From Bacteroidales bacterium (GTDB lineage: Bacteria > Bacteroidota > Bacteroidia > Bacteroidales > JAADJA01), in the NCBI GenBank assembly GCA_026984135.1, contig JALSSR010000152.1:1-51117 (forward strand): a DNA stretch of 51,117 bases, written 5' to 3'. A model generated the notes under the pieces. That model did not search any database. It saw nothing but the letters and a program-made list of their open reading frames with translations, and was not told where the DNA came from. The stretch's first letter is position 1; each line of letters begins with the position of its first letter. A program made the position numbers and the translations under genes. This document shows positions 4,538-43,151 of the stretch, in pieces.

Positions 4538-7500
4538 ATGAAAAAGTTAATTGTAGCAATTGCATTGCTAATAACTACCGGTTTGTTTGCCGGAAACGGT
4601 TATGAAGCAACATTCGAGCAACCTGAAAATGGTATTTATCAGGTGAATTTTACAATAGGTAATTATGATTTGACTGAGGTTGCATTTGATGGTGTAACCT
4701 ATTCAAAGATAATTTTTGACGGAAGTGTGCATACAAATATGAAAGGTTTTGCAGAACTTCCTTTCGTCAGTGCATCGGTTATGTTATCACCGGATAAAAA
4801 TGTTTCATTGAAGGTGATTTCATCGGATTATGTGGATATTGACCTTGAGAACCCTATGCTTCCTTCAAGAGGTGTTATTTACAGGGATCAGGACCCTTCG
4901 GCAATACCTTATGAAATAAGTCCGTCTTCATTACGGGATAATTGGTATCCCCAAAATCTGGCAAGGAACACAGCACCGTTTATCATTAAAGATATAAGAG
5001 GTACTTCCGTTTATGTTTATCCTTTCAGATATAATGCCGTACAAAATAAGTTACGTATATATAAATCCGTAACGGTTCAACTGATTGAAAATGAAACTCA
5101 ACCGGTTAATCCTCTTGCCAAAAAACCTTCAAAAATATTACGTGAGATGGACGGGATTTATTCTTCACTCTTTATCAATTATTCCGAAAATAAGGATGAC
5201 CTTACAATAGGACAATTCGGAGATATTTTGGTAATATGCACCGACAGGGATGAGAATGCCATTCAGCCTTATATTCAGTGGAAAAGAGAAAAAGGTTATA
5301 ATGTTTCGTTGGAAGTTGTGGCAACGGGAACAAATGTAAAAACACTTGTTCAAAATGCTTATGATGCAAATAACGATTTGCTTTATGTTCAATTGGTGGG
5401 CGATTGGGCGGATATAAAATGTGATGTGTTAAACGGCTCTTCTCCAATGGACCCCCAACTTGGCTGTGTTGTCGGAAATGATGAAGTTGCGGATATTACA
5501 GTTGGAAGGATATCCTCAAATTCACCTTCGGATGTTACGGTTCAGATTGATAAAATCATTAACTATGAAAAAAATCCCGATATCGGAGCAAGCTGGTATA
5601 GCGCTGCTATAGGAATTGGGTCGGATCAGGGGCCCGGTGACGACGGTGAACTTGACAAGGAGCATATTCAGGTGATATGGGATGATAAGCTTGATCCTTT
5701 TACCTACGAAACATATTCCCCGATTTATGATCCTTCCGCATCCGCGGCAATGGTGTCCACTGCCGTTAATGACGGTGCCGGTATAGTCAACTATTGCGGA
5801 CATGGTTCTCCGACTTCCTGGGGAACAACGGGTTTCAGCAACAATGACGTTTCTGCACTTACAAATGGAGATAAATTACCCATAATCTTTTCCGTTGCTT
5901 GCAATAACGGTAATTTTCAGGATCCGGGCGACTGTTTCGGTGAAGCCTGGTTAAAGAAAGAAAACGGAGGAGCCGTTATGTTTCTCGGAGCTACTATTAG
6001 CCAGCCATGGGACCCACCTATGCGGGGCGAAGACTATTTTGACGATATTCTTACGGGTGGATACGATTACTCCCAGCATCCGGATCAAAACGGAATTTCT
6101 ACGGACGAGGGTAGAACGACTATAGGTGCAATTGTGTTTAACGGTTTTGTATTAATGACTACGGAATCCAACGGGGCAAGCGATTGGGAAACGGCCAAGA
6201 CCTGGACTATTTTCGGAGATGCCTCTATGCAACCGCGTACGGATATACCCGGTGCAATTACTCTTTCAAATGAAACGGTAATGGCCGGTATTCCTTATAC
6301 TACAACGGTAAGTGGTCCCGATGGACCTGTTGAAGGGGCAATGGTTTGTATTTCAAACGGAACGGATTACTTTTCAGGTGTTACGGATGCAAGCGGAAGT
6401 GTCTCAATAAATCATACTTTGGTTCCGGGTGCGGCAAAGAGGGTAGTAACGGGCTTTAATCTCGAAATCGTTTATGAAGATATTACGGTTGCATCTTCAA
6501 ATACACCCTGGATTGTTGCAGGCGATTGTGTGATTGACGATTCCAACGGGAACAACAACGGACAGGCCGATTACGGTGAATCCGTATTGCTTAATGTTAC
6601 AGCTGAAAATGTCGGAACGGTTGCCGCTTCGGGAATTAATGCTGTAATTACTTCTACCGATCCTTTTATCACAATTACGGATGATTCATTCTCGTACGGT
6701 GATATTGCCGGTGGCCAGACCGTTAGCGGCGACGGTGCGTTTGCCGTTACAATTGCGGGCGATGCTCCCGATAATTATAATGCTGTTATTGATATTGAAT
6801 TTACCGACGGAAATAAAGATTCATGGACATCTTCATTTACAATTGATTTACATGCTCCTGTTATGGAAATGGGAAATTATACAATTGATGATGCTTCCGG
6901 CAACGGAAACGGAAATATTGACCCGGGCGAAACCGTTGAAATTACAATACCCGTTTTAAACTCCGGTTCTTCGGATGCTTATTCCGTTGTCGGTGAGCTT
7001 GTATGTAATGATGCTTATATTACAATTGCAAACGCTTCCCAAAATTACGGAGATATAAATGCTGCCGGACAAGCACAGGCAGTCTTTACCGTAACGGCTG
7101 AAGCAGTTACTCCTGTGGGACATCAGGTTACTTTTGATTTTGAAATTTCCGCCGATTTGATCACTTCCGTACAGGAATCTTTTGATTTGGTGATTGGCCA
7201 GATACCTGTAGTTGTAATTGACCTTGACGGTAATACCAATTCGGGGCCTGCTATGGTTGATGCTATGGCAAATAATGGTGTTGCAGCCGAATATGTTGCA
7301 TCCTTTCCCGATGATCTGAATTTGTATTCTTCGGTATTTCTGTGTCTTGGTGTTTATCCTGATAATCATACTCTTACGGATAGTGAAGGGCAGTCTCTGG
7401 CAGACTATCTAAATGCAGGCGGTAACCTTTATATGGAAGGTGGAGATACCTGGTTTTACGATCCGCAAACAGTTGTCCATCCTATGTTCAGCATTGATCC

Positions 7501-20431: not shown

Positions 20432-22312
20432 ATGAAAACTATATTAATTTTAGCATTTTCCATTTTTACGATTATAGGGCAATCCCAGATACCTGAAATC
20501 ATACGTCAAAAATGTGATGGAACATCATTTGATGATTATAATCCCTGTATTATAGAAAACGGACCCGACTACCTTATGGGCTTTTCAAGGCCATCAAACA
20601 AACAGTATTTTGATAGTACGAAAACCGATTTTAGCATATGCTTGGTTGAAATTGATTCTATGGGGAATTTTATATGGGATAAATTTTACGGGGGAAGTGA
20701 TTTTGACAAACCGGAAAAGATAATAAGAACAACTGACAACGGTTATTATCTTCTCGGGTTAACATTTTCAAATGATGGGGATGTGCAATCATTTAATCAT
20801 GGGGATGGGGATTTATGGGTTGTGAGATTGGATCAGAATAAAAATATACTTTGGGAAAAATGTTTTGGAACTCCATATTATGAAGAGCCGAGGGATATTA
20901 TTTTAACTCCTGACGGAGGTGTTGTGGTTATAGGCCAAATACACGGTGCAGGGGGAGATGTTTCTGTTTATTATGGTTATTATGATATCTGGATGTTCAA
21001 ACTTGATCCCACCGGCAACTTGGAGTGGGAAAAAACCATTGGAAACGAAGAAGAAGACAAGGGTTTTTCAATAATGCTAAATAGTCTGAATAACATAATG
21101 TTGATTGGTGCAACTACTAAAAACGGCGGGCTTGTTGATTGTTATCCTAATGAGGGATGGCCGGATGTATGGCTTGTGGAACTTGATTTACAGGGAAATA
21201 TCTTAGCACAGAATTGCTATGGTGGCAGTTACTATGATTTGGGAATTGATTTACTGGAAATTGATGACGGTTTTATACTTATGTGTTATACCGATTCAAA
21301 TGACGGAGATGTTTCAGGGTTACACGGTACTCCTAACGGCTCCTCCGATATCTGGATTTTAAAAATTGATGGACAGTTTAATATTGTTTGGCAAAAGTGC
21401 TTAGGCGGGTATTCAAGTGAATCACCTGACTATATTTTAAAAACTGAAGATGCCGGTTATATGATATTTGGCAGTACATCGTCCCACGACGGAGATGTTG
21501 CCGGAAACCATTCATCATCTTTTGGTAATGATTCTGATGTATGGGTAGTAAAAATCAATCAATCGGGAGAAATAGAATGGCAACAATGTTATGGCGGTTG
21601 GGGAAGCGAATGGATGTGGAACAAAAACTGTGTTTTGAAAAAAGACGATTATGATTTCATAATAACCTCCTCAACAGACTTTGGCCCGTCATATGATGTT
21701 CTGTGCTCTCCGGGTTACCTTGATAGGGATTCCTGGATATTTGAAATAAAAGACTGCGACATTTACACCCCTTCAACACCCGAAACACCTGCGGGTGACG
21801 ATACGGTCTGCAACTCCTCAGGCGGCACAAGCTTTATGAGCATACATAAAGCACAAAACGTCGATACCTACGAATGGAGAATACTGCCGGCAAATTCGGG
21901 TTCGTTGACTCAGACGGATACATCGGCTGTCATCAGTTGGAACCCGTCTTTTGAGGGTACTTCATCCGTTATCGTACGAAGCAATAATGAATGCGGAACG
22001 AGCCAATGGTCGGAGCCGCACCACGTTATCGTGGTCAACTGCATAGGTATAGCGGAGCAGCAGTCCGGAGACATCAGCCTTAAGGTTTATCCCAATCCCG
22101 CAAGGGAGTTTGTGGTGTTTGAATTGAACAAAGCATCCCGCACCGGCACCATTGTCATCTACAACTCCACCGGAACGGAAACGGCAAGGCTGCAAACAAA
22201 CGGCAGCCGTACAACGTGGCACACCGGAAACATCAAACCCGGATTGTTCTTTTACAGAGTGGAAACGGAAGAAAAGGTTTTGAGCGGGAAGATTGTGATA
22301 AGCGGAGGGTAA
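20432..22312 (+). CDS. T9SS-secreted protein: beta-propeller-like repeats, PKD-like stalk, CTD
   Basis: Repeats of W.K.(Y/F)GGS..D and DxWxxKxD.xG.(I/L).W of about 55-60 aa; CG.SQWSEP stalk; CTD VYPNPAREF. Confidence 0.8.
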   Translation: MKTILILAFSIFTIIGQSQIPEIIRQKCDGTSFDDYNPCIIENGPDYLMGFSRPSNKQYFDSTKTDFSICLVEIDSMGNFIWDKFYGGSDFDKPEKIIRTTDNGYYLLGLTFSNDGDVQSFNHGDGDLWVVRLDQNKNILWEKCFGTPYYEEPRDIILTPDGGVVVIGQIHGAGGDVSVYYGYYDIWMFKLDPTGNLEWEKTIGNEEEDKGFSIMLNSLNNIMLIGATTKNGGLVDCYPNEGWPDVWLVELDLQGNILAQNCYGGSYYDLGIDLLEIDDGFILMCYTDSNDGDVSGLHGTPNGSSDIWILKIDGQFNIVWQKCLGGYSSESPDYILKTEDAGYMIFGSTSSHDGDVAGNHSSSFGNDSDVWVVKINQSGEIEWQQCYGGWGSEWMWNKNCVLKKDDYDFIITSSTDFGPSYDVLCSPGYLDRDSWIFEIKDCDIYTPSTPETPAGDDTVCNSSGGTSFMSIHKAQNVDTYEWRILPANSGSLTQTDTSAVISWNPSFEGTSSVIVRSNNECGTSQWSEPHHVIVVNCIGIAEQQSGDISLKVYPNPAREFVVFELNKASRTGTIVIYNSTGTETARLQTNGSRTTWHTGNIKPGLFFYRVETEEKVLSGKIVISGG

Positions 22313-22687
22313 ACCCCTCTGTCAGCCTGCGGTTGACATCTCCCCTGAAGGGGAGACCGGCGATAGTAGTAGGATTAGCGGTAGTGGAAATTTATGTTTA
22401 ATTACGAATTAAAAACATTTTGAAAACAGTTAAAAAACCGAATAAATTATCCGTTTTGGAGGATGTGAGAATTAGTCTCTCTTTCAGGTAAAAAGACCCC
22501 TCTGTCAACCTGCGGTTGACATCTCCCCTGAAGGGGAGACCGGCGGTAGTAGATGGAATAACGGTAGTGGAAATTTATGTTTAATTATGAAAAAAAAACA
22601 TTTTGAAAACAGTTAAAAAACCGAATAAATTATCCGTTTTGGAGGATGTGAGAATTAGTCTCTCCTTCAGGAGAGATTTAGAGAGGT
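22313..22687 (+). repeat. Two tandem 183-bp repeat units (starts 22313 and 22496) containing REP-like hairpins
   Basis: Each unit starts ACCCCTCT-GTCA(A/G)CCTGCGGTTGAC-ATCTCCCCTGAAGGGGAGAC, continues through an AT-rich spacer, and ends GTCTCTC(C/T)TTCAGG. The period is exactly 183 bp. Confidence 0.95.
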
Positions 22688-22691
22688 AAAG

Positions 22692-23120
22692 GTGGGAGTT
22701 AAAAAAGAAAATATCGAAAAAGAAATGTTTTACGGAGCAAGTCCCGAAATATTTCGACGTGCTTTGGAATTAAGAAAGAATATGACCAAAGCCGAAAAAA
22801 AACTTTGGGCGGCTTTGAGAAGAAAACAAGTTAACGGGAAACGTTTCAGACGGCAACATCCCATAGGTAAATTTATTGTGGATTTTTACTGCCACGAAGT
22901 AAAACTTGTAATAGAGCTTGACGGAAGCATTCATAATTTTCAAGAACAAAAAGAATATGACTTGGGTAGAAGTGAAGATATTCAACAACTTGGTATTAAA
23001 ATTATCAGATTTACAAATAAACAAGTTATGAACAATTTAAATAAGGTAATAGCCGATATTGAAAGCGAAATAAAAATAATAAATGACGAAACAATCAAAG
23101 ATGGAGAAAGTTTGCATTAG
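22692..23120 (+). CDS. DUF559 family endonuclease-domain protein (Vsr-like, PD-(D/E)XK fold)
   Basis: ALELRKNMTKAEKKLWAALR...FRRQHPIGKFIVDFYC...LVIELDGSIH. The start could instead be the ATG of MFYG. Confidence 0.9.
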   Translation: MGVKKENIEKEMFYGASPEIFRRALELRKNMTKAEKKLWAALRRKQVNGKRFRRQHPIGKFIVDFYCHEVKLVIELDGSIHNFQEQKEYDLGRSEDIQQLGIKIIRFTNKQVMNNLNKVIADIESEIKIINDETIKDGESLH

Positions 23121-23129
23121 CCTTTTTAA

Positions 23130-23390
23130 ACCCCTCTGTCAACCTGCGGTTGACATCTCCCCTGAAGGGGAGACCGGCGGTAGTAGATGGAATAACGGAA
23201 GTGGAAATTTATGTTTAATTATGAATTAAAAACATTTTGAAAACAGTTAAAAAACCGAATAAATTATCCGTTTTGGAGGATGTGAGAATTAGTCTCTCCT
23301 TCAGGGAAAAAGACCCCTCTGTCAACCTGCGGTTGACATCTCCCCTGAAGGGGAGACCGGCGGTAGTAGTAGGAATAACGGAAGTGGAAA
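23130..23390 (+). repeat. Third (23130-23312) and partial fourth (23313-23390) 183-bp repeat units
   Basis: Near-identical to units 1 and 2, again with a 183-bp period. Unit 4 diverges after GTGGAAA. Confidence 0.95.
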
Positions 23391-23456
23391 ATTGATATTT
23401 TTGTTATGAAATTAAACATTTTGAATTAGAGATGTAAAAAATATAAAACAACAATT

Positions 23457-25265
23457 ATGAGTATAAAATTAACAATAACGGCGATATTTATAACATTGGC
23501 ATCTTTGGCGCAATTGCCGGAGATAACTATGCAGCAATGCTATGATAATTCCGTCAGCGATATTCCGGCGGGTATTTGCGAAACCGAAAGCGGGTATGCC
23601 GTTTTAACGGAGGTTTATAATGCCACGGGCACTCCCGGATTTCACGCTTTACGTGATTTTCATATTAGGTTTGTTGATACCCTCGGAAACACTCTGTTTG
23701 AAAAATGCTATGGCGGGTCCAAATCGGAGTATCCGAAAAAAATTCTGAAAACCGGTGACGGTAATTTTCTTTTGTTCGGAAAAACAAATTCCGTGGACGG
23801 TGATTTACCCGGAAATATTTGGGGATATAACGACTTATGTATCATTAAAATAAATCAGAACGGTGATATAATATTTTCAAAAACTTACGGCAGTACGGGC
23901 GATGATTCTCCGGGTAGCATCATATTGCTTCCTGACGGCGGTTTTATGTTTTGCGGAACTATATACGGCGACGGCGGTGATGTTGCAAATTATTACGGCG
24001 ACGGTGATATGTGGATTTGCAAGTGCGACCAGAACGGAAATATTGTTTCGCAAATGACTTTCGGCGACGATAAGGAGGATAAATGTAATGACATTTTGTT
24101 GAATGATGGAAATATAATTGTGGGCGGTGCAAAATTCATAAAACAAAGTTTAGTAACAATGTACGGTGCCCGGTTATTCGAAACGGACTTTCAGGGAAAT
24201 ATTCTCTGGGACAGTTTTATTCCCGACTCGGTATCTAATCATCTGGATTCAAGTATTGAAGCACTTTCCATTCTGAAAACCACCGACGGATATATGACAT
24301 TATGTAGTTCTGTTGGAGGTACGGATTATAATATGTTACTAAAAACTGATAATCAGGGACAATTGGAATGGAAAAAGAAATACGGGACCTATGGAGGTTA
24401 TGCAGCTCCCGCATATATAACACAATTAGACGACGGCAATTATCTGTTATTAGGTTGCGATTCAAAAGCTCCTTGCAACCACGCACTTCCTTCTCAATCA
24501 ACAACCGATATTTGGTTAGCCGAACTCGCTACAGACGGAGACATAATACTTCAGCAATGTTACGGCGGATACGGAGATGAAAATCTAAATCTTAATTGTG
24601 TAATAAAAAAGAGTGATTATCATTATGTAATTGCAGGAGATTCCGATTCCGACAATTCTGGTGATGTTACTTGCGAAAACGACGACCGGAATGTATGGCT
24701 TGTGGAAATGCAACGCTGCCCCGGTTACGAACCCGGCGTGCCCGATATTCCCTCAGGCCCCGACACAGTCTATTCAGCCAACCATCCCCAAATAACCTTC
24801 ACCATTGAACCACCACAAAATGCCTGGACTTTCAACTGGAAAATGGAACCCGACACAGCGGGCGAACTGACAGGCTACGGACTCTATGCCGAAGTTGATT
24901 GGGCACCGGACTTTAGCGGTACGGTGCAACTGTTCGCCCAAAGTGTCAACTACTGCGGCGAAAGCCAATGGTCCGAACCGAAAACCGTTTCGGTGTTCAA
25001 TACAATAGGAACGGATGAATATAACACAAATGAAGTTAGTTTAAAGGTTTATCCCAATCCTTCAAACGGAGATTTCATAATAGAAAGCGCTTTGTTGAAC
25101 GGCAAGTTCAATGTTAAAATTTATGATATAACGGGAAATATGGTTGTCAATGAATTTCTTCAATCGAACCGCTTGAAAACCAACCTGCAGGACGGAATCT
25201 ATTTTGTGAAAATCATAGACGGTGAAAATGTCTATTTAAGGAAGATAGTCATTGAAAATAAATAG
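23457..25265 (+). CDS. T9SS-secreted beta-propeller-like protein, paralog of 20432..22312
   Basis: Same repeat type (FEKCYGGSKSE, QQCYGGYGDE), CGESQWSEP stalk, CTD VYPNPSNG...GIYFVKI; TATTTTTG -7 box at 23396-23403. Confidence 0.8.
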   Translation: MSIKLTITAIFITLASLAQLPEITMQQCYDNSVSDIPAGICETESGYAVLTEVYNATGTPGFHALRDFHIRFVDTLGNTLFEKCYGGSKSEYPKKILKTGDGNFLLFGKTNSVDGDLPGNIWGYNDLCIIKINQNGDIIFSKTYGSTGDDSPGSIILLPDGGFMFCGTIYGDGGDVANYYGDGDMWICKCDQNGNIVSQMTFGDDKEDKCNDILLNDGNIIVGGAKFIKQSLVTMYGARLFETDFQGNILWDSFIPDSVSNHLDSSIEALSILKTTDGYMTLCSSVGGTDYNMLLKTDNQGQLEWKKKYGTYGGYAAPAYITQLDDGNYLLLGCDSKAPCNHALPSQSTTDIWLAELATDGDIILQQCYGGYGDENLNLNCVIKKSDYHYVIAGDSDSDNSGDVTCENDDRNVWLVEMQRCPGYEPGVPDIPSGPDTVYSANHPQITFTIEPPQNAWTFNWKMEPDTAGELTGYGLYAEVDWAPDFSGTVQLFAQSVNYCGESQWSEPKTVSVFNTIGTDEYNTNEVSLKVYPNPSNGDFIIESALLNGKFNVKIYDITGNMVVNEFLQSNRLKTNLQDGIYFVKIIDGENVYLRKIVIENK

Positions 25266-39150: not shown

Positions 39151-41277
39151 ATGAGACTAAAGGCATTATTCATTATCGCAATAGCAGGACTTTTCATTGC
39201 TTGCAATTCAAATCAAAAACAGATGGAATCGAAAACAGGAACAAATCCGTTTTTTACTGAATACGATACACCGTTCGGTGTTCCGCCGTTTGACAAGATC
39301 AAACCGGAGGATTATCTCCCGGCTTTTAAGGAAGGCATTAAGCAACAGGATGATGAAATAGACGCCATTGTTAACAACCCCGAGCCTGCAACATTTGATA
39401 ATACGATTGTAGCTATGGAATATACCGGAGAGTTGTTGCGGAAGGTTTCAAATGTCTTTTTCAATTTGACCGAGGCAAACACAAACAAGCAGTTGCAAGA
39501 GATTGAAAAAGAGGTTGCCCCGTTGCTGGCAAAGCATAACGACAATATAAATATGAACGGGAAATTGTTTGCGAGGGTAAAAACAGTTAATGACAAAAAG
39601 GATGATTTAAACCTTTCGGTAGAGCAAAAGAAACTTCTTGAGGAGACATATAAAGGCTTTGTCAGGGGCGGAGTAGGACTCACGGGAAAGGATGCCGAAG
39701 AGTTCAGGAAAATAAACGGTGAGTTGTCGTCACTAACGGTTAAATTCGGCGAGAATCTGCTTGCCGAAACCAACGCTTTCAAACTTGTTATTGATAATAA
39801 GGATGACCTTGCGGGATTGCCGGATTTTGTAGTCGAAATGGGTGCTGCCGAAGCTAAAGCCGACGGAATGGACGGGAAATGGGTCTTTACACTTGATAAA
39901 TCAAGTATGATTCCTTTTTTGCAATATTCGGCAAAAAGAGATTTGCGCGAAAAGATTTTTAAGGCTTATATCAATAGGGGGAACAATAATAATGAGCATG
40001 ATAATAAGGCTGTTGCTTCCAAAATTGCAGCTCTGAGAGTAAAACGTGCAAATTTGTTGGGATTCAAAACACACGCCGATTATGTTCTGGACGAAAATAT
40101 GGCGAAAACACCCGAAAATGTTTATAACCTTATGAATCAGGTGTGGGATGCAGCTCTGCCTGTTGCCAAAGAGGAAGCAAAAACTTTACAGTCAATGATT
40201 GATGCCGGAGGAGGAGACTTTAAACTGCAGCCCTGGGACTGGTGGTACTATACCGAAAAACTTCGTAAAGAGAAGTATGCTCTCGATGATGAGCAGTTGA
40301 AACCCTATTTCGAACTTAATAATGTCAGAAATGGAATGTTTGAAGTAGCTCACAGGCTTTACGGCTTGAATTTCAAAGAGATAAAGGATATCCCGAGACC
40401 TCATCCCGATGCAAAAGCTTTTGAGGTACTTAATGATGACGGGTCGCTTCAGGCCATTCTGTATATGGACTTTTTCCCGCGTTCAAGCAAAAGAGGAGGT
40501 GCCTGGATGGATACCTACAGAAAACAGTATAAAACCCGGGACGGTAAAAATGTCATTCCCGTTGTAACAATGGTGATGAACTTTTCCAAACCCACCGGAA
40601 CAAAACCCTCCTTACTTACTTTTGAGGAGGTTTCAACCATGTTTCACGAGTTTGGTCATTCGCTGCACGGTATGTTGAGTAATTGTACTTACAGGTCGCT
40701 TTCGGGGACTTCCGTTGCAAGGGACTTTGTGGAGATGCCTTCACAGTTTATGGAAAACTTTGCTTCCGACCCGCAGGTTTTGAAAATGTATGCAAAAAAT
40801 TATGAAACCGGTGAACCTATTCCCGATGAGCTTATTGAAAAAATGAATGCAACATCACATTTCAATCAGGGATTCATTACAGTAGAATATACCTCTGCCG
40901 CCTATCTTGATATGGATTGGCATACTTTAACCGAACCTGTTGAAAAAGATGTCATTGAATTTGAAAACGCTTCAATGAAAAAGATAGGTCTTATACCCCA
41001 AATAGTTGTAAGGTACAGAACGCCCTATTTTGCTCATATCTTTTCAGGTGGTTATTCGGCTGGTTATTACAGTTATCTGTGGGCTGAGGTGCTGGATGCC
41101 GACGCTTTTGAAGCATTCAAGGAAAACGGTATTTTCGATAAGAAAACGGCGGATTCCTTCCGTACTAATATCCTTGAAAAAGGCGGAACCGAAGACCCGA
41201 TGGTGCTCTACGAACGGTTCAGAGGCAGAAAGCCAAGTATTGAACCTATGCTGAAAAGGAAGGGCCTTCTGAAATAG
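39151..41277 (+). CDS. dcp: M3 family peptidyl-dipeptidase Dcp (lipoprotein)
   Basis: Lipobox FIAC, KRGGAWM, FHEFGHSLH, RDFVEMPSQ, HIFSGGYSAGYYSYLWAE. Confidence 0.9.
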   Translation: MRLKALFIIAIAGLFIACNSNQKQMESKTGTNPFFTEYDTPFGVPPFDKIKPEDYLPAFKEGIKQQDDEIDAIVNNPEPATFDNTIVAMEYTGELLRKVSNVFFNLTEANTNKQLQEIEKEVAPLLAKHNDNINMNGKLFARVKTVNDKKDDLNLSVEQKKLLEETYKGFVRGGVGLTGKDAEEFRKINGELSSLTVKFGENLLAETNAFKLVIDNKDDLAGLPDFVVEMGAAEAKADGMDGKWVFTLDKSSMIPFLQYSAKRDLREKIFKAYINRGNNNNEHDNKAVASKIAALRVKRANLLGFKTHADYVLDENMAKTPENVYNLMNQVWDAALPVAKEEAKTLQSMIDAGGGDFKLQPWDWWYYTEKLRKEKYALDDEQLKPYFELNNVRNGMFEVAHRLYGLNFKEIKDIPRPHPDAKAFEVLNDDGSLQAILYMDFFPRSSKRGGAWMDTYRKQYKTRDGKNVIPVVTMVMNFSKPTGTKPSLLTFEEVSTMFHEFGHSLHGMLSNCTYRSLSGTSVARDFVEMPSQFMENFASDPQVLKMYAKNYETGEPIPDELIEKMNATSHFNQGFITVEYTSAAYLDMDWHTLTEPVEKDVIEFENASMKKIGLIPQIVVRYRTPYFAHIFSGGYSAGYYSYLWAEVLDADAFEAFKENGIFDKKTADSFRTNILEKGGTEDPMVLYERFRGRKPSIEPMLKRKGLLK

Positions 41278-41372: not shown

Positions 41373-41405
41373 ATTCCCCTCTTTAGAGGGGTGTAGGGGT
41401 GTGTT
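41373..41405 (-). repeat. Solitary REP-like palindrome
   Basis: Minus strand reads AACACACCCCTACA-CCCCTC-TAAA-GAGGGG-AAT, the same architecture as the hairpins flanking DUF559. Confidence 0.6.
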
Positions 41406-41573: not shown

Positions 41574-43151
41574 TTATTCTTTAATAACTTTCAAAATATC
41601 CGATACCTCATTTCCTTTTTGAATGCTGATAAAATATATACCGCTCTGAAGGTTTGAGCCGGCTACTATTCTACCCGTTTGTTCCGTGACAGGCTTCTCC
41701 TCGACAATCCTTCCCGTAAGGTCATAAATTCTGTACGATGCACCGGTAGTGACAGGGCTGTCGAAAAAATATTCCGCTACAATTTGAGTGCGAAAGGGAT
41801 TGGGATAAACAGCCAGACCTATTTGTTCAGGGTTTTCGATTCCTGTGGTAACCGAATAGCTCATTTCAACATTCAGATTTGTAACAACACCGTTCTCAAG
41901 GATTACATCGTCTAAAACTTTTGTGTCGTATCCCTCTTTTGAAAACTCAAAGGTGAATGTTCCTTCTTCAAGTGTGCCGAATCCGAAAGTTCCCGTATTG
42001 TCCGTTTGTCCTCCGAAGTCAATGCCGGTAACACTCCAGATAACATCACTTAGAGGTTCTCCGCTTATGCTGTCAAGCACGATGCCTTCAATTCTGGAAG
42101 CGTGTTTGTAGTCAACCGATAAAATGTAAAGTCCCTCTTCAATGTCGGAAGCAAGTATGTTGCCTGAAGGCAGGAAAGGATAAACACCCCAGCAACCTGC
42201 ATAACCGCCGCCTGAAAAAGGCGAAGTGTCAAAATTTGCAACTTCAATCATATCCGCCGGATTGCTGACGTCATGAATAACCACTCCATCCTTGTAATAA
42301 GAGGTTATGATGAAATCATTCATAAAGTGAGTATTATGCGGAATGACACCGCTGCCCGGGTTTGACTGAACTTTGTCCAATTCCGCAATATTATTAATAT
42401 CCGAAACATCGTAAGCTGCCACATAACCGCTTCCGACTTCATCGGTAGTGAAAACATAATTACCATTATCCGATACCCAGGAGTTGTGGGTGAAATTGCC
42501 AGGTGTATAGGCAGTTGCCATAACGAAGGGGGCTGCCGGATTCGTAACATCAACCATGGCAAAAAATCCGTTGTATATCGCACTTCCGTATAAAATGTTA
42601 TTTTTAACCATCCCGTCGTGCAGATAATAATCATTAAATCTTCCCAGTTCAACCGGATTCATCGGATCTTGAGTAAGGTCGCATATTATTGCTCCTCCGT
42701 TGCCGTTATCGGCACCGAAAATATATAATCTTCCGTTTTCATCAATATATATGTTGTGCGCATCCGAAAAAGGATAACCCGAACCCGTAAAAAAAGATGT
42801 ATTGGTTATTTCCCCGTCAGGTAGCGGGCTCATATCAACAATAAATACCCCTCCGGTACTTTCGGATGAAACATAGGCATAGTCACCCCAGGTCTTTATG
42901 TCGCGCCAGATGGAAGGATCCTCATTGCCGAAATAGACTTCAACAGGATTTGCAGGTTCCGTGACATCCACAATGGAAAGCCCTTCATAAACTCCCACAA
43001 GTGCATATTCGTTACCCGTTTCATCAACATAGCCCCAAACATCACTGATGTCGTTTGTATATTCAAGTTTCCCGAGTAACCCCATATTGAGTTGTGCAAA
43101 GGTTATAAAAGTAATGTTGAAAATGGCAATGGAAATAAAAAATCGTTTCAT
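41574..43151 (-). CDS. Choice-of-anchor B / LVIVD-repeat protein with carboxypeptidase-regulatory-like domain and T9SS CTD
   Basis: SDVWGYVDETGNEYALVG, AHNIYID, THNSW, PHNTH, GCWGVYPFLPSG; CTD VYPNPF. Confidence 0.8.
   Translation of the reverse strand: MKRFFISIAIFNITFITFAQLNMGLLGKLEYTNDISDVWGYVDETGNEYALVGVYEGLSIVDVTEPANPVEVYFGNEDPSIWRDIKTWGDYAYVSSESTGGVFIVDMSPLPDGEITNTSFFTGSGYPFSDAHNIYIDENGRLYIFGADNGNGGAIICDLTQDPMNPVELGRFNDYYLHDGMVKNNILYGSAIYNGFFAMVDVTNPAAPFVMATAYTPGNFTHNSWVSDNGNYVFTTDEVGSGYVAAYDVSDINNIAELDKVQSNPGSGVIPHNTHFMNDFIITSYYKDGVVIHDVSNPADMIEVANFDTSPFSGGGYAGCWGVYPFLPSGNILASDIEEGLYILSVDYKHASRIEGIVLDSISGEPLSDVIWSVTGIDFGGQTDNTGTFGFGTLEEGTFTFEFSKEGYDTKVLDDVILENGVVTNLNVEMSYSVTTGIENPEQIGLAVYPNPFRTQIVAEYFFDSPVTTGASYRIYDLTGRIVEEKPVTEQTGRIVAGSNLQSGIYFISIQKGNEVSDILKVIKE

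Follow-up and report, generated by a model that had tools for sequence, protein, structure and literature searches.

BoxC, PIT and related triplex-type repeats have been known since the 1990s, are abundant in many bacteria and are associated with genome instability, and we know of no protein partner that has been reported for them. DUF559 is a very large protein family whose structure has been solved and which has no known function. Both are present in a 51,117-nucleotide contig from a Bacteroidales bacterium (JALSSR010000152.1; "the window" hereafter means this whole stretch), where a DUF559 gene lies within a tandem array of 183-nt non-coding units that end in palindromes of this type. The locus is one instance of a widespread pairing of DUF559 genes with three-arm palindromes. 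Judging from sequence comparisons, the DUF559 family may act on this old, unexplained class of bacterial repeats.

The intrastrand-triplex motifs described as BoxC, PIT and TM(ECO) consist of a pyrimidine block, a purine block and a mirror purine block (Holder et al. 2015, PMC4666352). The ITxF finder locates them as stems of 6-15 nt with loops of 1-6 nt, and they have been linked to genome rearrangement with no mobility genes nearby (PMC4666352). The unit ends in the window share the order of pyrimidine arm, loop, purine arm, short spacer and mirror purine arm. They are G/C-rich, multi-copy and intergenic, occur in both orientations, and are likewise linked to rearranged loci. The right end, TCTCTCC-ttca-GGAGAGA-ttt-AGAGAGG, fits the ITxF rule (7-nt arms, loops of 4 nt and 3 nt), and the left end fits it only when a 17-nt spacer hairpin is ignored. 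This extra hairpin, which goes beyond the 1-6-nt loop rule, is one difference from the published motifs. In addition, the arms here are CTCTCC or CTCCCC instead of the Escherichia coli consensus, and the motifs form both ends of a 183-nt composite unit. The published motifs also come without a reported protein or mobility gene.

Other described systems resemble the locus in part. Repetitive extragenic palindromic (REP) sequences, the REP doublets forming hairpins (REPINs) and the REP-associated tyrosine transposases (RAYTs) offer a similar layout, in which a single-copy enzyme gene lies between inverted palindromes that also occur in many gene-less copies. As in that system, the doublets fold as a long hairpin and the palindromes are extragenic and multi-copy. 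However, the enzyme here is a Vsr-like PD-(D/E)XK protein (PF04480) and not a Y1 HUH protein (PF01797), the unit ends begin with ACCCCTCT / ACCTCTCT and lack a GTAG/CGTC head, and the three-arm repeats persist in relatives without DUF559. The Vsr-like "EDxHD" homing endonucleases (I-Bth0305I, PDB 3R3P; PMC3424549) belong to the same fold superfamily. The DUF559 gene resembles theirs as a small, selfish-looking nuclease gene that appears to be polymorphic in its presence, and recombination-dependent copying is plausible. Unlike them, the window locus has no intron or intein context, and its putative target is a palindrome repeated at dispersed places, not a single conserved site in a gene. Finally, miniature inverted-repeat transposable elements (MITEs) and mosaics of the bacterial interspersed mosaic element (BIME) type share the non-coding unit of less than 200 bp, the inverted ends, the modular hairpin mosaics and the tandem intergenic clusters. 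In contrast, the units here have no target-site duplication and no known transposase with matching ends, and their copies are few and diverged.

The source genome (G000) is a 4.17-Mb Bacteroidales metagenome-assembled genome (MAG) from a hydrothermal-vent metagenome, with 307 contigs and 38.6% G+C. In the labels used below, C denotes its contigs (C152 being the window), G genomes of relatives, L homologous loci and X runs. An initial annotation of the window had described four direct repeats, two on each side of the DUF559 gene. These are present (Table 1), with a period of exactly 183 nt on either side of the gene, by which the second unit runs to 22678. The whole array lies between two cargo genes of the type IX secretion system (T9SS) that are paralogs. 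They are 94-98% identical to one another, with BLAST E-values of 1e-74 to 1e-98 that exclude chance. Unit 4 diverges after about 80 nt, where it passes into the leader of the downstream gene. As had been noted, unit 1 begins on the base after the TAA stop codon of the upstream gene and unit 3 is also preceded by TAA. This second TAA is not the stop codon of the nuclease gene, which is TAG (23118-23120). The array had been called symmetric. Its spacing is indeed the same on both sides, and the apparent symmetry reflects a 267-nt direct repeat whose two copies are 95% identical.

The two hairpins said to open each unit, GTCAAC-ctgcg-GTTGAC and CTCCCC-tgaa-GGGGAG, were found, with the first one imperfect in unit 1 (GTCAGC). 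The left end as a whole reads ACCCCTCT-[GTCAACCTGCGGTTGAC]-ATCTCCCC-tgaa-GGGGAGAC, which corresponds to a mirror pyrimidine arm, the small spacer hairpin, a pyrimidine arm, a loop and a purine arm. It is followed by an AT-rich interior of about 115 nt. The complete right end, GTCTCTCC-ttca-GGAGAGA-ttt-AGAGAGGT, corresponds to the left end in inverted orientation, minus the spacer hairpin, and it is carried by unit 2 as the inverted variant GTCTCTCCTTCAGGAGAGATTTAGAGAGGT. Units 1 and 3 are cut 2-3 nt past the loop and are joined to the next unit through (G/T)AAAAAG. Of the inverted closing arms that had been proposed, the 15-nt GTCTCTCCTTCAGGG closes unit 3, and unit 1 is closed by a similar variant, GTCTCTCTTTCAGG. 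The non-coding unit of 183-196 nt carries the terminal inverted repeats ACCCCTCT..ATCTCCCCTGAAGGGGAGAC and GTCTCTCCTTCAGGAGAGATTTAGAGAGGT, and a single strand of unit 2 folds from end to end as a long hairpin (z = -2.8 as DNA and -2.6 as RNA). The unit is MITE/REPIN-like, in line with the initial annotation, whereas its ends are not the classic REPs suggested there but inverted three-arm pyrimidine/purine palindromes of the BoxC/PIT/triplex-motif type. The spacer hairpin of the left end recurs in the unrelated cassettes L026, L032, L040, L081, L083 and L088, and therefore represents a variant of the motif that is not peculiar to the window locus.

The gene enclosed by the array matches PF04480 with 122.3 bits against a cut-off of 20.6 (residues 22-127 of a 142-aa open reading frame, ORF), and its product matches PDB 3HRL with E = 7e-21. 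The 142-codon ORF starts at GTG 22692, which falls in the repeat tail AAAGGTG that is also present in gene-less copies. A complete inverted repeat directly before the nuclease had been described, and this holds, except that the true start is ATG 22725 (MFYGASPEI), which is conserved in homologs and gives a product of 131 aa. The catalytic residues D53, E64, D66 and H70, numbered from this ATG, are each 97-99% conserved in 74 homologs. The ratio of nonsynonymous to synonymous substitution rates is about 0.12 relative to the closest same-genus copy (G003, 70% nucleotide identity). By family, the protein is a small Vsr-like PD-(D/E)XK nuclease, and the gene is intact and under purifying selection. 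DUF559 has been grouped with Vsr and a homing endonuclease (PMC3424549), and it is enriched among predicted inversion targets with an odds ratio of 14.3 (PMC9881135). We found no paper that names DUF559 in title or abstract.

The association between gene and palindromes extends well beyond this locus. The window protein retrieved 57 loci from other species at 41-71% identity, mostly from Bacteroidota but also from Cyanobacteria, Chloroflexota, Proteobacteria and candidate phyla. With a strict exact-match detector, 43 motifs were found in the 32.6 kb within about 250 nt of DUF559 gene ends versus 18 in the 241 kb elsewhere in the same loci, or 1.32 versus 0.075 per kb (~18-fold). At most of these loci the gene is bracketed by inverted three-arm copies. 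Most often a left-type motif precedes the ATG by 90-140 nt and a right-type motif lies at the stop codon or closely behind it, and the reverse order (right end, gene, left end) is found in cyanobacterial loci and at both loci of this genome. A relaxed three-arm detector finds motifs in 67 of 84 loci. It cannot tell left from right types, and the strict detector is therefore the basis for statements on orientation. PF04480 has a patchy distribution in 31 relatives (0-4 copies), and its flanks again carry motifs. DUF559 genes between direct copies of longer units also occur in the same-genus genomes G002 and G010. The full 183-nt unit is absent from 18 same-genus genomes by BLAST, and end-sized pieces alone match there. 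We did not find the association of DUF559 with three-arm motifs in print.

Some loci show further arrangements. Three-arm-flanked DUF559 domains lie within stop-free frames of 643-1254 codons at L077, L081, L082, L083 and G011:C104, and these look like in-frame insertions in larger genes. At L088 (G015:C1:181400-182100), the DUF559 gene stands between two direct copies of a complete four-arm palindrome, and about 95 nt of the 3' end of the host gene is duplicated on both sides of the insert. In E. coli K-12, the stop codon of the single DUF559 gene, ycjD, lies within a hairpin, with a BoxC copy about 170 nt downstream and a duplicated 3' gene fragment.

The only other DUF559 gene in the genome, as found by tblastn, is at C123:7591-7971 and is 45% identical to that of the window. 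The array in which it is nested is built from another family of units, each about 190 nt long, and the order is again right end, gene, left end. These units end in GACTCACCCC..CCCCTCTCTaaatattAGAGAGGGG and CCCCTCTCT..AGAGGGGattaaGGGGTGAGTC and share the core ACGGTAGTGGAAATT..AAAAACAG with the window units. A duplicated 3' gene fragment (7300-7412) lies one unit upstream of the C123 gene. Across C123:7000-8300, the closing unit end is ...GGGGTGAGTC, and a duplicated 90-nt spacer is present. Motif arrays hold both of the genome's DUF559 genes and fill well under 1% of its sequence.

DUF559 protein identity correlates with the similarity of the flanking motifs (Mantel r = 0.34, p = 0.001), a correlation to which shared host phylogeny may contribute. 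When different DUF559 genes of one genome are compared, their motifs are unlike (similarity 0.26-0.38), and in six of six comparisons the motifs were closer to those of the nearest DUF559 relatives from other genomes (0.33-0.96). The motif variants therefore appear to track the DUF559 subfamily and not the host. The closest same-genus DUF559 gene, in G003, occupies a compact cassette of about 470 bp (left end, 49 nt, gene, right end). This cassette has the end type of the window, including the spacer hairpin, but a different gene context. No homology was detected between its leader and the unit interior, where the ends alone match. An orthologous empty site was not found in the genus, as the G003 flanks have no DNA counterpart in this genome and the genus genomes are too diverged.

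The gene can also be missing where its surroundings are present. Contigs C152 and C307 are segmental paralogs with patchy identity of 79-95%, and C307 carries the repeat array with no counterpart of 22696-23129. The DUF559 cassette is thereby defined as 434 bp, set exactly between the right end of one unit and the left end of the following one. Runs X2 and X4 lack the gene while the flanking genes are present at 96-99% identity and at depths of 3-17 (about 3 in X4). Two related vent populations therefore lack the gene. In X3, the gene has a depth of 2.4 versus 10-12 for its flanks and is thus a minority variant. We count the C307 array without DUF559, the absence from X2 and X4, the different context in G003, the DUF559 genes between direct repeat copies in G002, G010 and G015, and the duplicated 3' gene fragments at C123 and ycjD as support for mobility of the gene via the repeats. 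DUF559 and its variant of the motif are co-inherited or relocate jointly, with gain and loss of the gene among close relatives. Contig joints in X2-X4 that skip the gene were considered as an empty site and rejected, because they derive from the paralogous C307-type junction.

The likeliest mechanism, which we put forward tentatively and at a little short of even confidence, is that DUF559 acts on the palindromes flanking its own gene and thereby provokes recombination-based gain, loss and duplication. The nuclease would recognise or nick the structured palindromes beside its gene, and the breaks would be mended by homologous recombination between repeat copies. As a result, the segment of gene plus repeat could be duplicated, deleted or copied, in a homing-like or Campbell-type manner rather than by cut-and-paste transposition. 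At the window locus, gain or loss of the gene would proceed through the 267-nt direct repeats and alter the length by 817 bp. If the two copies recombined, these 817 bp, DUF559 included, would be lost, and a Campbell-type event through the same repeat would add them. The gene-less units would have spread mainly by local tandem duplication and alongside duplicated T9SS genes. A broader proposal, which we regard as doubtful, is that DUF559 proteins are the missing partners of BoxC/PIT/triplex-type repeats in general. Each subfamily would then recognise and nick its own motif variant and, by way of recombinational repair, drive the duplication, deletion and homing-like copying of itself and of its gene-less derivatives.

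Several observations weigh against the nuclease-driven mechanism. Most motif copies in the genome, comprising about 17 solo copies and the gene-less units, have no nuclease gene nearby. At the window locus the common cassette order is reversed (right end, gene, left end), and we could not derive one arrangement from the other. No target-site duplication was found, since the bases flanking the units differ (TAA, AAAAAG, GAAA). Also, there are no recent identical copies, as those at different loci are old and only 80-93% alike. At the genome level, the pattern CCCC-N3-6-GGGG-N2-6-GGGG, which captures only some variants, occurs 377 times versus 65 for the control in the 31 relatives pooled, with the control equal or higher in a few genomes. 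Genomes free of PF04480 can be rich in this motif (G024 with 20 copies and 100% completeness, G026 with 18 and G017 with 11), and the relation between DUF559 count and motif excess by genome is weak (Spearman rho = 0.34, p = 0.06). The gene-less allele of the window locus was not recovered in X2-X4, where the contigs break in the repeats. We know of no biochemical activity of DUF559 proteins on three-arm motifs. Lastly, the copy number of the units is as assembled only and is unverified. Unit number and order rest on the MAG assembly, because the contigs of independent assemblies all end within the repeats and the interior of unit 1 (22369-22435) is unseen in the X1 contigs.

This last point bears on whether the two-plus-two array, or the placement of the cassette, could be an artefact of mis-joined repeats or strain variants. 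Such errors would fit with the contig breaks, with the part of unit 1 missing from X1 and with the existence of similar units at other loci. However, in an independent assembly of X1 the right end, the DUF559 gene and the left end lie on one 491-nt contig, which equals 22666-23156 with zero mismatches and flank-level depth and thus supports the junctions between the gene and the repeats. Moreover, each of the four units has distinct single-nucleotide differences, and the layout of unit, gene and unit recurs at C123 and in same-genus genomes. We therefore consider an artefact highly unlikely.

The main rival to a nuclease-driven process is that DUF559 is passive cargo in a recombination hotspot. 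Here the palindromes would be host or selfish repeats that destabilise DNA by themselves. Small accessory cassettes such as DUF559, with a true role in Vsr-like repair or defence, would accumulate and be exchanged among them, and the nuclease would never act on the motif. This is somewhat unlikely in our estimation, but several facts agree with it. Genomes lacking DUF559 can be rich in the motifs, solo copies predominate in this genome, and such motifs have been tied to rearrangement with no mobility genes found (PMC4666352). The ycjD region of E. coli also fits, being large and variable and present in 3346 of 5426 complete genomes. The alternative allele is a larger replacement that starts about 35 nt from BoxC, and no clean cassette indel is seen. 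What argues against passive cargo is that the motif variants appear to follow the DUF559 subfamily and not the host. In addition, inverted copies stand at stereotyped distances on both sides of the gene in many phyla (~90-140 nt upstream, and at or after the stop codon), and among the loci examined DUF559 was the sole recurrent cargo observed between motif pairs.

E. coli had also been considered as a source of clean empty sites and was rejected, as genomes without ycjD carry a larger replaced region and no cassette-sized gap. In O157:H7, homology ends about 35 nt before BoxC and is followed by a TetR/resistance-nodulation-division (RND) efflux block (L100:8040-8840, L101:1640-2130).

Units of the window family are also present at C307, C304 (twice), C100, C7 and C70, with a fragment at C302, all at 80-93% identity to those in the window. 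At least six other loci thus have units that share these ends but lack the gene. Across the genome there are about 26 right-end and 14 left-end BLAST matches, plus the C123 variants. Most units outside the window sit just 3' of T9SS cargo genes or of fragments of T9SS gene 3' ends. At C304:6560-7340, the last ~95 nt of a T9SS gene, a 51-nt hairpin and one unit are duplicated together in tandem (period about 374 nt), which indicates that arrays also grow by duplicating adjacent host sequence. The 51-nt hairpin, AACCTTTCGGGTC...GTCCCGAAAGGTTGAAA, belongs to a family of 16 copies (e.g. C304:6604-6654, C7:1908-1958, C302:26938-26988) that often lie right after the stop codon of a T9SS cargo gene and right before a 183-nt unit.

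This distribution bears on the inference, made in the initial annotation, that DUF559 may spread the units in the manner of a RAYT. As a strict analogue, the protein would excise and insert 183-nt units that are its non-autonomous derivatives. The layout does resemble a RAYT between inverted REPs, the gene-less units have the ends of the G003 cassette, and the unit folds as a long hairpin. Nevertheless, near-identical dispersed copies and target-site duplications are lacking, most units lie behind T9SS cargo genes, and segmental paralogy links C152 with C307. All 18 same-genus genomes compared lack the full unit, making it private to this species, and the motifs persist in DUF559-free genomes. 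Furthermore, we know of no PD-(D/E)XK protein that serves as sole transposase, and TnsA needs TnsB. Segmental duplication, gene conversion and local tandem duplication can explain the units, and strict transposition by DUF559 is improbable. Overall, the observations of the initial annotation are confirmed and its interpretation is partly supported.

The claim that the enzyme is not of the HUH type stands. The genome has three matches to PF01797 (Y1_Tnp), on C235, C173 and C124, and none adjoins the units or three-arm motifs. Y1 transposases were considered as the real partner of the units and were ruled out, because their genes carry other repeats. At C235:5500-6800, a Y1_Tnp gene (IS200/RAYT-like) lies between direct repeats of about 330 nt, and these repeats carry a palindrome, CCTTATTACCTTAT...ATAAGGTAATAAGG, that has no relation to the units.

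Least probable among the explanations we considered is a role at the RNA level, in which the palindromes would be 5' and 3' untranslated region (UTR) structures with a stabilising or regulatory effect on the DUF559 mRNA and the gene-less units would be leftovers or regulatory leaders of neighbouring genes. The flanking motifs do occupy stereotyped, UTR-like positions, and unit 4 grades into the downstream T9SS leader. However, an Rfam scan of 21800-23900 gave sub-threshold chance matches only (whalefall-1 with 17.9 bits, and mir-BART15). Scans for sigma-70 promoters and intrinsic terminators returned nothing above shuffled sequences, where the sigma-70 type is not the promoter type of Bacteroidota. 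Solo motifs are also found in convergent gaps, relatives carry the motifs within long reading frames, and PIT elements showed neither promoter nor terminator activity (PMC4666352).

If the broader proposal of DUF559 as general partner of these repeats is true, the pairing would be a second bacterial nuclease-repeat partnership, independent of RAYT-REPIN, and the locus would show its MITE-like gene-less units in tandem. A specific link between DUF559 and the motif would give both a testable function, and would place a non-HUH case beside the REPIN-RAYT model, in which repeats live with a dedicated enzyme. The locus also provides a compact set of substrates for biochemistry, with a 131-aa enzyme, defined ends, a gene-less paralogous locus and a compact cassette from the same genus.

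Table 1. Coordinates of the repeat array, the DUF559 cassette and other features of the window.
Feature	Position	Strand	Description
Upstream T9SS cargo gene	20432..22312	+	626 aa, Por_Secre_tail and PKD-like domain; 3' 280 nt paralogous to C307:20689-20970
Unit 1, 183 nt	22313..22495	+	Left three-arm end with spacer hairpin, AT-rich interior, truncated right end
Unit 2	22496..22695	+	Complete right end 22657-22694, GTCTCTCCTTCAGGAGAGATTTAGAGAGGTAAAGGTG; full MITE/REPIN-like unit, ends pair
DUF559 cassette, 434 bp	22696..23129	+	29-nt leader, ORF from ATG 22725 to TAG 23120 (131 aa), 9-nt tail; bounds from the C307 comparison
Unit 3, 183 nt	23130..23312	+	98% identical to unit 2 over 176 nt; right end truncated
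Unit 4	23313..23456	+	Left end intact; remainder passes into the downstream leader, homologous to a C307 sub-repeat
Downstream T9SS cargo gene	23457..25265	+	602 aa; paralog of C307:21538-23412
267-nt direct repeat, copy 1	22310..22576	+	Partner 23127-23393
267-nt direct repeat, copy 2	23127..23393	+	Partner 22310-22576
Solo three-arm motif CCCCTCT-tta-GAGGGG-tgta-GGGGTG	41376..41401	+	Convergent gap between ORFs 39151-41277 and 41574-43151; no DUF559 nearby

Related motifs are found in other settings of the same genome. At 16-17 further loci, the right-end variant AGTCTCACCTTCAGGGGAGATTTAGAGGGG forms part of another long mosaic repeat. This repeat is intergenic, exceeds 300 nt and combines several hairpin modules with AGTCTCACCTTCAGGGGAGATTTAGAGGGG (e.g. 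C93:37322, C230:23534, C263:32087), with no DUF559 gene adjacent. Copies like the solo motif listed in Table 1 are also present on C133, C169, C266 and C273.

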